From assembly GCA_017999615.1 (NCBI GenBank), contig JAGNLM010000001.1, positions 264,549-328,548 of the forward strand: a stretch of 64,000 bases of DNA, read 5' to 3'. This document shows, piece after piece, positions 40,369 to 43,300 of this stretch. The translations under genes were made by a program, and so were the position numbers. Source of the DNA: Gammaproteobacteria bacterium. GTDB lineage: Bacteria > Pseudomonadota > Gammaproteobacteria > JAABTG01. Positions within the stretch are counted from its first letter, which is position 1; each line of letters begins with the position of its first letter. The notes below the pieces were generated by a model. The model was not told the origin of the DNA and searched no databases. It saw only the letters and a list, made by a program, of their open reading frames with translations.

Positions 40369-43300
40369 ATGAGCGACGACTGCATCCGGATCCGGGGCGC
40401 CCGCCAGAACAACCTGAAAGGTCTCGACCTGGACCTGCCCCTCGGGGAGCTCCTGGTGGTCACCGGCGTGAGTGGCGCGGGCAAGTCCTCGCTCGCCTTC
40501 GACACCCTCTACGCCGAGGGCCAGCGGCGCTACGTCGAGACCTTCTCGCCCTACGCCCGCCAGTTCCTCGACCGCATGGACCGCCCGCGGGTGGACCGCA
40601 TCGAGGGGATACCGCCGGCCATCGCCATCGACCAGACGAACCCGGTGCGGACCTCGCGCTCGACGGTCGGCACCATGACCGAGCTGTCCGACCACCTGAA
40701 GCTGCTCTACGCCCGGGCGGCCCAGCTCTACTGCGGGGGCTGCGGGCGCCCCGTGCGCCGGGACACGCCGGAGAGCATCGCCGACGCGCTCCTCGGCGAC
40801 GGGCTGCCGGTGCTCGTCACGTTCCCGGTCCAGGTTCCCGCCTCCTTCTCCGAGGAGGAGGTGCGGGGCTTCCTCGCCGCCCAGGGTTACACCCGCGTCC
40901 ACCGGCGCGACGGCGACACGCTGGAGGTGGTGCAGGACCGCCTGCGGCCCGCCGCCGAGCGGCGCGCGCGGCTCGTCGAGGCCCTGGAGGCGGCGCTCGA
41001 GCGCGGGCGCGGGCGGGTCAGCGTGTATCGGGCCGACGCACAGGAGCCGCCCCGGCGCTTCTCCCGCGATCTGCACTGCCCGGACTGTGACCTGCGCTAC
41101 CGTGACCCGGTCCCCAGCCTGTTCTCCTTCAACTCGCCCCTGGGGGCCTGCGAGACCTGCCGGGGCTTCGGGCGCACCCTCGGCATCCATCCGGACCTGG
41201 TCGTCCCCGATCCGGCCAGGACGCTCGCGGGTGGGGCGGTGCGCCCCTGGCAGACCGAGAGCTACGGTGAGTGCCAGGACGACCTGTTGCGCTTCGCCCG
41301 CCGGCGGGGGGTGCGCACCGACGTGCCCTGGCGGGACCTCTCCCCCGAGGAGCGCCGCTGGGTGCTGGAAGGCGAAGGGGAGTGGGAAGACCGGGTCTGG
41401 TACGGCGTCGGGCGCTTCTTCTCCTGGCTCGAGAGCAAGGCCTACAAGATGCACGTGCGCGTGCTGCTCTCGAAGTACCGCAGCTACGCGGTTTGCCCGG
41501 CCTGCGGCGGGGCGCGCCTGAAACCGGAGGCGCTGCTCTGGCGGCTCGGTACGAGGGAGGACGCCGACGCGGCGCTCGGGGGCACCGCCCGTTTCCGCCC
41601 GGCCGGGGTGGCTTTCCCGGACGCCGTGCTGAGCGCCCTGCCGGGCCTCACCCTGCACGACCTCGCGGGCCTCCCCCTCGGGACGGCCCGCGCCTTTTTC
41701 GACGGCCTGCACCTGCCGGCCCCACTCGACCAGGCGACCGACCTGCTGCTGCGGGAGATCCGCACCCGGCTCGCCTACCTGGTGGAGATCGGGGTCGGTT
41801 ACCTCACGCTCGACCGCCAATCGCGCACGCTCTCGGGTGGCGAGGTGCAGCGGATCAACCTGACGACCGCCCTCGGCACCTCCCTCGTCAACACGCTCTT
41901 CGTCCTGGACGAGCCCAGCATCGGGCTGCACCCGCGGGACGTGGGGCGGATCATCGGGGTCCTGCAGCGCCTGCGTGACGCCGGCAACACGCTGGTCGTG
42001 GTCGAGCACGACCCCCAGGTCATGCTGGCCGCGGACCGGATCCTCCATCTGGGGCCGGGGCCGGGGGAGAACGGCGGCGAGGTGGTGTTCTTCGGTCCGC
42101 CGGGCGAGCGGGTGAAACAGGGTTTGGAGTCATCGGCAGGCATTGCCAGGGTGGCTGACTCCGACGCCCTCGTCTTCCCGGGGGCTGGCGCTGGCGCAGG
42201 CGGCGGGGTCGGCCCCCCCGACGGGGCGACCCGCTGGCTCGAGGTCCTGGGCGCCGCGGAGCACAACCTGAAGGGGATCGACGTCCGCATCCCGCTCGGG
42301 CGGCTGGTCTGCCTCACGGGTGTCAGCGGCTCGGGCAAGTCGACCCTGGTGGAGGAGGTCCTCTACCGGGGGCTGCTGAAGCGGCTCGGGCGCGCGACCG
42401 AGGCGCCCGGCGCCCACCGGGACCTGCGGGGCCACGAGTCCCTCGGGGACGTGGTCCTGGTGGACCAGTCACCCATCGGGAAGACCACCCGCTCCAACCC
42501 TGCCAGCTACGTCGGCGCCTTCGACGCCATCCGCAAGCGCTTCGCCGCCCAGCCGCTCGCCCGGGAGCGGGGCTACACCGCCGGCACCTTCAGCTTCAAC
42601 GCGGGTGACGGGCGCTGCCCGACCTGCGGCGGGAACGGCTTCGAGCACGTGGAGATGCAGTTCCTGTCCGACGTCTACCTGCGCTGCCCCGACTGCGACG
42701 GGCGGCGCTACCGTCCCGAGGTGCTCGAGGTCCGGCTGGAAGGACCGGGTGGTCCCGCGGGTGCGGATGGGGCTCCCCGGCCCGGCCTGTCCATCGCAGA
42801 CGTGCTCGACCTGACCGTCTCCGAGGCCCTCGCGTTCTTCGCCGGCGACGCCGAGATCGCCCGCGCCCTCGAGCCCCTGGTCGCCGTCGGCCTCGACTAC
42901 CTGCGCCTGGGCCAGCCCGTCCCCACCCTCTCCGGCGGCGAGGCCCAGCGCCTGAAGCTCGCAAAAATGGGGACATTCTGGTTTTCCGGAGAACCAGGCG
43001 GGGCGCGGGTTTCCGAGGGGGGGGTAAGGGCAGTCGGGGACGTCGCGGAGAGCAAGCGCCTACGCGGCTCGCGGGAAAAGCAGAATGTCCCCATTTCTGT
43101 TCTGTTCCTCTTCGACGAGCCGACGACGGGGCTGCACTCCGAGGACGTCGCGACGCTCCTGGGGGCGTTGCAGGCGCTGGTGAAGGCCGGCCACTCGGTG
43201 GTGGTGATCGAGCACAACCTGCAGGTGATGGGCGCCGCCGACTGGATCATCGACCTCGGACCCGAGGGCGGGGACGGTGGCGGCGAGTTGGTCTGCGCGG

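Follow-up and report, generated by a model that had tools for sequence, protein, structure and literature searches.

An in-frame hairpin repeat, probably associated with a Y1/HUH transposase, in a linker of a tandem UvrA-like ATPase

Introduction

The 64,000 nucleotides analysed here (hereafter the window: positions 264,549 to 328,548 of contig JAGNLM010000001.1, from a gammaproteobacterium) carry a gene for a tandem UvrA-like ABC ATPase, and within its coding sequence, between the signature and the Walker B motif of an ATPase domain, lies a palindromic element through which the reading frame stays open. This locus raises the question of what kind of element this is, how it could have reached such a position, and what it means for the protein that contains it. 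We argue that it is probably a non-autonomous hairpin repeat associated with a Y1/HUH transposase of the RAYT kind (a tyrosine transposase associated with REPs, which are palindromes of the repetitive extragenic kind) named 'TIRYT', which landed in the UvrA linker and is tolerated there as a near-neutral decoration of a functional protein.

The element in the uvrA gene

The features of the window on which the argument rests are the following (ORF, open reading frame; TIR, terminal inverted repeat; NBD2, nucleotide-binding domain 2).

40369..46260, + strand: tandem (two-unit) UvrA-like ABC ATPase, 1963 aa from the ATG at 40369; ORF open from 40324
42928..42963, + strand: ABC signature LSGGEAQRLKLA of NBD2 in unit 1, directly upstream of the element
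42965..43096, + strand: palindromic repeat element (TIR-repeat dimer, REPIN-like) in the UvrA coding sequence, 132 nt = 44 codons
42965..42987, + strand: left arm of the element, AAATGGGGACATTCTGGTTTTCC, which includes GGGGACAT
42988..43073, + strand: variable spacer, partly self-complementary
43074..43096, - strand: right arm, an inverted copy of the left arm, + strand letters GGAAAAGCAGAATGTCCCCATTT
43102..43137, + strand: Walker B strand and next loop, LFLFDEPTTGLH, two codons past the element
45823..45945, + strand: counterpart of this linker in unit 2, expanded by low-complexity sequence that includes three 9-bp tandem repeats; not a copy of the element
62089..62209, + strand: second copy of the family, 121 nt, intergenic

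The window holds four copies of the 16-mer AAATGGGGACATTCTG, arranged in two inverted pairs (42965-42980(+) with 43081-43096(-), and 62089-62104(+) with 62194-62209(-)); 0.13 matches would be expected by chance, and none of 100 shuffled sequences reached four. In the uvrA copy the arms extend to 23 nt each, with 22 of the 23 positions paired, and their G+C content is about 43% in a genome of about 72%. Folded as DNA, the uvrA and intergenic copies reach -38.7 and -40.6 kcal/mol (z = -6.3 and -5.5 relative to shuffles); as RNA the uvrA copy reaches -72.7 kcal/mol (z = -5.6). The first-pass annotation of this DNA had described an inverted-repeat-bounded element of about 130 bp within the UvrA coding sequence and an intergenic second copy; both are borne out, and more copies were found in the metagenome-assembled genome (MAG) of a close relative, on the contig of locus L104. 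The interiors of the two window copies align poorly between the arms. The spacer of the uvrA copy has the blocks GGAGAA..AGGCG.. and GCGCC.T.CGCGGCT.C.CGG in common with the L104 copies, and the entire 132 nt are therefore element DNA. By analogy with the intergenic copy, which ends in ACGG.../...CCGT, the uvrA copy may in truth extend 3-4 nt more at either end (CGC-A... / ...CTGT). The possibility that 'AESKRLRGSRE' within the insert is a native KELSKR-like linker lying between two solo arms was rejected, as its DNA is homologous to the interiors of other copies. The intergenic copy lies 65 bp from a tRNA-Leu(cag) gene (61937-62023, - strand).

The ORF from 40324 to 46260 is open across the element, which is read as (K)MGTFWFSGEPGGARVSEGGVRAVGDVAESKRLRGSREKQNVPI(S), exactly the peptide that had been reported for it. 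The reading is LSGGEAQRLKLA-KMGTFWF...KQNVPISV-LFLFDEPTTGLH, in which LFLFDEP is Walker B, so that the location given by the first-pass annotation, between the ABC signature and Walker B in NBD2 of unit 1, is correct. The 5.9-kb ORF is intact and all four sets of Walker A, signature, Walker B and H-loop motifs are present; its product matches the solved structure 2R6F with E = 6e-146 (phmmer), and the alignment to that structure is interrupted exactly at the insert, where residues 858-867 are replaced. The element itself is stop-free in four of its six frames. No Rfam match was obtained for 42800-43300 at E <= 1, no promoter or terminator was found by a scan of 42500-43600, and a full-text literature search for the arm sequence returned unrelated primer matches only.

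The linker in orthologues and in the predicted structure

The protein search listed 120 orthologues, 55-69% identical to the window protein by BLASTP (63-72% for the 41 aligned with MAFFT). Nearly all of them have SGGEAQRLKLAGHLA, then 8-55 variable residues, then (T/K)LFLFDEPT. At the sequence level the linker of this tandem-UvrA paralogue thus reads as a hypervariable GHLA-x(8-55)-LFLF segment, and the short conserved KELSKR linker that had been proposed for this site does not apply to it. The window protein has no GHLA stretch, since the element starts one codon past LKLA; the insert, said earlier to add about 35-46 residues, does amount to 44 codons, but it replaces the GHLA part and is not a simple addition. 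Its peptide is not shared by any listed orthologue. All the listed protein matches are at most 1749 aa long and many are labelled partial, which suggests a length limit in the protein database that perhaps hides full-length close relatives of the tandem UvrA.

The AlphaFold model of unit 1 (mean pLDDT 81.9, pTM 0.77) has TM-scores of 0.76/0.84 against 2R6F. Confidence falls below a pLDDT of 50 only at residues 874-905, within the insert. In the model the signature helix (856-872) runs on through the first seven residues of the insert, and the Walker B strand (910-916) is kept. The first-pass annotation had proposed structure prediction as a check for a surface loop, and the prediction agrees with one: a low-confidence loop at 874-905, flanked by an intact ATPase fold.

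The repeat family and its transposase

The 16-mer was searched for in a collection of one genome per species (596 Gb), which gave at least 120 loci. Inverted pairs are present in about 40 of those listed, from Woeseiaceae, Steroidobacteraceae, Ectothiorhodospiraceae, Polarisedimenticolaceae, Nitrospira and Phycisphaerae. The remaining two thirds or so are single matches spread over unrelated taxa, as chance would give for a 16-mer in this much sequence. From the listed loci we collected 54 paired elements. Their lengths form a continuous range from 47 to 334 nt, and they have in common a conserved arm of about 22 nt, AAA[T/C]GGGGACATTCTG[G/C][T/A]TTT[T/C], around interiors that are each distinct, yet self-complementary in the short members. 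Direct repeats at the flanks are absent from 42 of the 54, the uvrA copy among those without any, and measure only 1-2 nt in the remainder; the family therefore makes no target-site duplication. The length is a multiple of three in 17 of the 54, which is the chance rate. The other family copies that we looked at are intergenic; five of them lie within 8 kb in L104, which belongs to the same MAG as the close relative's uvrA locus (L055, see below), all between genes.

Several other properties of the family deserve mention. Tandem half-sites stand beside the paired elements in the listed loci, as two + arms in a row or as nested pairs (L104 4533-4749 and 5565-5764; L003 3243-3348). The interiors of the elements near the L104 transposase gene are long, repeat-rich and partly of low complexity. 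In short members (L009 2274-2338, L105 5208-5285, L096, L082) the arms are perfectly complementary for up to 21 nt past the 16-mer, differently in each copy; the two arms within one copy seem to evolve in concert, as though one had served as template for its partner. An identical 16-mer arm is common to elements of Gammaproteobacteria, Nitrospira and Phycisphaerae, the RAYT-like proteins of which are only 53-60% identical; this cross-phylum conservation of the DNA arm is unusually strong for a REPIN-like system.

At two loci, L120 (Nitrospira) and L043 (Phycisphaerae), inverted arms 720-740 bp apart enclose a single ORF. Both ORFs encode the HUH motif (PNHFHL) and the YxxxNP tyrosine motif, and both match the Pfam family Y1_Tnp (E = 3e-12 and 7e-11). 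A homologue of 257 aa, 53% identical and located between two elements, was found by tblastn in L104; its HUH motif is PNHFHLV and its tyrosine motif LRYVEANP, it scores 80.7 bits against the NCBIfam REP_Tyr_transpos equivalog (cut-off 80), and it matches the E. coli TnpA-REP structure 4ER8 with E = 1e-5. A fourth, partial transposase gene lies beside arms in L024 (tblastn). In the listed loci, the transposases that were found next to arms or enclosed by them are all of the Y1/HUH type, with no DDE enzyme among the enclosed ones. The spacing of about 1 kb between the L104 elements made us consider an integron attC array, which was discarded as there are no R'/R'' boxes and the RAYT-like gene lies between two of the elements.

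Class of the element and known systems

These properties fit a TIR-repeat dimer of the 'TIRtron' class, with REPIN-like behaviour, rather than a classic MITE (a miniature transposable element with inverted repeats) or a canonical REP doublet. A canonical REP doublet does not suit the arms because, taken singly, they fold no better than their shuffles (z = -0.38 and 0.00) and have no GTAG tag, whereas a control GTAG REP, from L156, does fold (z = -5.3). The lack of target-site duplication makes a DDE-type MITE unlikely. The first-pass annotation had called the element MITE-like; this stands for a repeated palindromic element and fails for the classic MITE class, given the missing target-site duplication and the Y1/HUH partner.

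RAYT-like genes flanked by long TIRs have been named 'TIRtrons' and their enzymes 'TIRYT' (Di Nocera, De Gregorio & Rocco 2013, BMC Genomics 14:522, PMC3733652). According to that text, a subset of TIRtron TIRs share the motif GGGGWSAS, and the repeat families occur as dimers and clusters. Our arm, in GGGGACAT, agrees with the motif at seven of eight positions, the last being T and not S, while the related arms of L203 (GGGGACAG) and L204 (GGGGTCAG) fit it fully. As in the TIRtrons described there, a Y1/HUH RAYT-like gene lies between long inverted repeats without GTAG, and these repeats also occur dispersed in the genome, alone, as dimers or in clusters; as there too, the transposase, of 224-257 aa here, is longer than the 165-aa E. 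coli RAYT chain of 4ER8. In the PMC3733652 text consulted we found neither this arm sequence nor its spread over Gammaproteobacteria, Nitrospira and Phycisphaerae.

Other systems resemble the element in part. The spacers of REPINs differ between copies yet keep the hairpin (Bertels & Rainey 2011, PMC3116915, PMC3337134), and the family described here likewise has two inverted conserved units, a copy-specific hairpin-keeping spacer, a non-autonomous character and a repeat-flanked Y1 transposase; its units, however, are neither palindromes nor GTAG-tagged, and the uvrA copy is intragenic, not extragenic. As with the Rickettsia palindromic elements (RPE), a palindromic repeat is read in frame and gives an apparently functional protein an additional surface segment, but those elements are CGTC-tagged or Rickettsia-specific and come without a dedicated transposase, whereas ours, unrelated in sequence, has the ends AAAT.../...ATTT and a transposase associated with it. 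Finally, it is like the DDE-type MITEs (Correia/NEMIS, RUP, ERIC, Nezha) in its small size, terminal inverted repeats, hairpin transcript and occasional in-frame insertion, and unlike them in that there is no target-site duplication and the partner enzyme is Y1, not DDE.

Palindromes in the same linker elsewhere

The same linker is occupied by unrelated palindromes in at least four other lineages. Those found are listed here.

L121 / P0043, unit-1 linker: 20-bp perfect arms
L156: GTAG REP doublet, 23/24 paired
L204 / P0076: 26/27 paired
L203 / P0070: AAAAGGGGACAGG arms, 17/18 paired, related core
L132: a weaker palindrome, 12 paired

No further copies of the L203, L204 and L121 palindromes were found elsewhere within their loci, which leaves them as candidate repeat families. 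Arms with at least 16 paired bases were present in 4 of 45 long linkers and in none of 869 control segments, a comparison that is biased since three of the four loci had been picked for palindromic-looking peptides; in the metagenome loci, which are unbiased, only 1 of 13 strong palindromes fell in the linker, not above expectation. An alignment of 42 orthologues has four or five length-variable regions, of which the signature-Walker B loop is one. The insertion hotspot suggested by the first-pass annotation thus keeps its factual part, namely that unrelated palindromes sit in the linker of other lineages, and loses its exclusivity, this being only one of four or five permissive loops; in our reading the linker is a permissive loop that has been colonised repeatedly, and the data do not demonstrate a targeted hotspot. 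The window's own unit-2 linker, which had been put forward as a case of the same recurrent insertion, does not support it either: no inverted repeat in it pairs more than 7 bases, and with its three 9-bp tandem repeats it has the look of slippage or low complexity and not of a mobile element.

Two observations concern linker sequences of this family more widely. Within the unit-2 linker (45855-45867), a half-site, GGGGTCAGACACT, resembles the arm of the P0076/L204 unit-1 palindrome and agrees with GGGGWSAS; no inverted partner goes with it, and the window contains no more matches of this kind than chance would give. The unit-1 linkers of P0013, P0092, P0059, P0099, P0098 and P0104, seen as peptides alone, hold peptides like those of translated widespread palindromic repeats (PLPQAGEG...GERxGVRG, SFPRRRESR, MDSRLRGSDE...VIPAKAGIQ).

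Repeats in a tandem UvrA are not new. The first-pass annotation had considered such an in-frame insertion rare; according to PMC3733652 and its supplement, intragenic REPs are frequent in repair and replication genes, and the 1889-aa excinuclease A subunit Tgr7_1444 of Thioalkalivibrio sp. HL-EbGR7 is listed with REP dimers at residues 865-887 and 1761-1783, Oter_2709 of Opitutus terrae being listed as well, as a further tandem UvrA with intragenic REP dimers. Tgr7_1444 is the same type of host gene, from a genus of the Ectothiorhodospiraceae, the family of the MAG that contains L055. By residue arithmetic, not by alignment, the two sites match: the unit-1 insert occupies residues 866-910 here and 865-887 there, and the unit-2 linker lies about 104-106 residues from the C-terminus in both, so that the REP sites of Tgr7_1444 would be the signature-Walker B linkers of units 1 and 2. 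Its repeats are GTAG-5 REP dimers of 23 residues, whereas here an unrelated TIR-repeat dimer of 44 residues occupies unit 1 only. Repeat insertion within the tandem UvrA family is already described, and the present element adds a further example.

Related assemblies and state of the gene

The uvrA copy of the element is found base for base in L055 (CALMKJ010000006.1), from an uncultured Ectothiorhodospiraceae MAG of 72% G+C; L055 is 92-97% identical to the window and therefore comes from a close relative. The exact 1963-aa protein is also encoded on an ENA metagenome contig (L205) that is 100% identical to the window. Its presence in both shows that the insertion is not an artefact of a single assembly. 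Over 1882 aligned bp, the window and L055 differ at 60 positions, 52 synonymous and 8 non-synonymous, all of them outside 42640-43556: the 917 bp around the element are 100% identical, and the flanks (42216-42639 and 43557-44080) differ by about 6%. Such a tract stems either from recombination that brought the insertion allele along with it or from chimeric assembly of the MAG contig.

The open frame is explained by selection on the outcome, with no sign that a property of the element is responsible: the uvrA copy is stop-free in most of its frames and family lengths are divisible by three no more often than by chance.

At another place in the UvrA gene of L055 (3312-3447, corresponding to window positions ~40801-40806), a further insertion of about 137 bp, likewise in frame, is present that is missing from the window. 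Its peptide is AGSRSPTPPGSGVRRNDEGVQRIRGSPPAASSEGHRKGGSARGASP and its DNA includes the palindrome TTCCGGCGTTCGCCGGAA; it may represent a different repeat family, and its presence seems to vary between close lineages.

Discussion

The course of events that we consider probable is the following. The element would be a non-autonomous hairpin repeat, two inverted arms of about 22 nt around a variable, partly self-pairing spacer, belonging to a family that would travel with a Y1/HUH RAYT of the 'TIRYT' type, the gene of which is enclosed by a pair of these arms. It would have spread without target-site duplication, presumably via single-stranded hairpin DNA, a step suggested by analogy with IS200/IS605 and E. 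coli TnpA-REP (PMC3479197). One copy would have landed in the hypervariable surface linker that leads from the signature helix to the Walker B strand in NBD2 of unit 1, and would be translated as about 44 extra residues, since its 132 nt are stop-free in frame and the loop tolerates 8-55 residues in orthologues. As predicted by the model, the first seven residues of the insert (KMGTFWF) would continue the signature helix in place of GHLA, the rest forming a low-confidence and probably disordered loop. A selective filter against disruptive insertions would keep such a tolerated copy, and the protein is most likely still functional.

Several points weigh against this account. No RAYT-like transposase gene was found in the 64-kb window by tblastn, and the window holds just two copies of the repeat; it is the association of arms and genes elsewhere that suggests mobilisation by a RAYT-like enzyme, and the NCBIfam score of the L104 protein barely exceeds the cut-off and that of the L120 protein, 72.3 bits, is below it. 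We infer that an insertion took place, where exactly it begins and ends, and that the GHLA codons were lost with it, because neither an empty site nor a close orthologue was found: the listed proteins include no empty-site allele and no orthologue more than 72% identical, and the best match in a metagenome scan for a nearer orthologue or an empty site was 60% identical. As regards function, the excess of synonymous differences stems from flanks whose divergence may predate the insertion, and the identical 917 bp are uninformative on selection since then.

Two explanations differ from ours on the nature of the element. A classic MITE would be an internally deleted DDE-type insertion sequence (IS), moved by cut-and-paste in trans through its terminal inverted repeats, and the 23-nt terminal inverted repeats, the size of about 130 bp, the lack of coding capacity and the multiple copies would all agree with it; we regard it as very unlikely, given that 42 of 54 members have no flanking direct repeat, that the transposases found in the listed loci are all Y1/HUH with no DDE enzyme between arms, and that a continuous range of lengths with copy-specific self-complementary interiors is untypical of deletion derivatives of a single IS. 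That there was no insertion at all, the segment being an ancestral hypervariable linker that happens to hold inverted repeats, would be compatible with a linker that varies in length in all orthologues and with the lack of an empty site in a close relative. It seems to us extremely improbable, however, as both arms exactly match the family 16-mer that also flanks a transposase gene, their G+C content is far from that of the genome (~43% against ~72%) and the peptide occurs in no listed orthologue.

Other explanations accept an inserted repeat and differ on its consequences. The element could have been co-opted, its hairpin (in mRNA or DNA) or its peptide tuning the expression of the UvrA paralogue or adding an interaction loop near the ATP site. 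The very stable RNA hairpin (-72.7 kcal/mol), the 917 bp identical between lineages whose flanks diverge by about 6%, the enrichment of intragenic REPs in repair and replication genes reported in PMC3733652 and the repeated colonisation of the same loop speak for this possibility, which we nevertheless find unlikely: the inserts of other lineages are unrelated in sequence and length, with no conserved common peptide or structure, plain expansion of low-complexity sequence changes the loop as well, the scan for terminator-like and promoter-like sites found none, disorder is predicted for the insert, and repeated occupation is expected of any permissive loop. It is likewise a doubtful proposition that the signature-Walker B loop of NBD2 is a preferred landing site for hairpins mobilised as single-stranded DNA, or that hairpins in repair genes are retained for regulation of the gene or protein, an idea prompted by the recurrence of palindromes in several phyla, the reported enrichment of intragenic REPs in repair genes and the identical 917-bp tract, which would fit a spread of the allele through recombination. 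At the opposite extreme, the insertion could have inactivated the gene, or NBD2 of unit 1, the open frame being a side effect of high G+C. The signature helix does lack its GHLA end, the insert lies 12 residues from the signature motif, and an element open in four of six frames makes the open frame alone weak evidence; but a 5.9-kb ORF intact with all its four motif sets, 52 synonymous against 8 non-synonymous differences from L055, a fold predicted with confidence on both sides of the insert and orthologues that tolerate up to about 55 residues at this place leave inactivation with very little probability.

In conclusion, the reading that we favour, a tolerated hairpin repeat associated with a TIRYT-type transposase, opens no new kind of biology, but provides a clean and well-delimited case in which a hairpin repeat associated with a transposase would be translated as part of an essential-type ATPase domain, and links this repeat to a probable Y1 transposase. 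Together with the other lineages found, it indicates that one loop of the tandem UvrA absorbs such repeats repeatedly. In annotation, such segments are to be taken neither for native sequence of the protein nor for new domains; for the UvrA family, the insertion marks a surface loop that is tolerant of large insertions.

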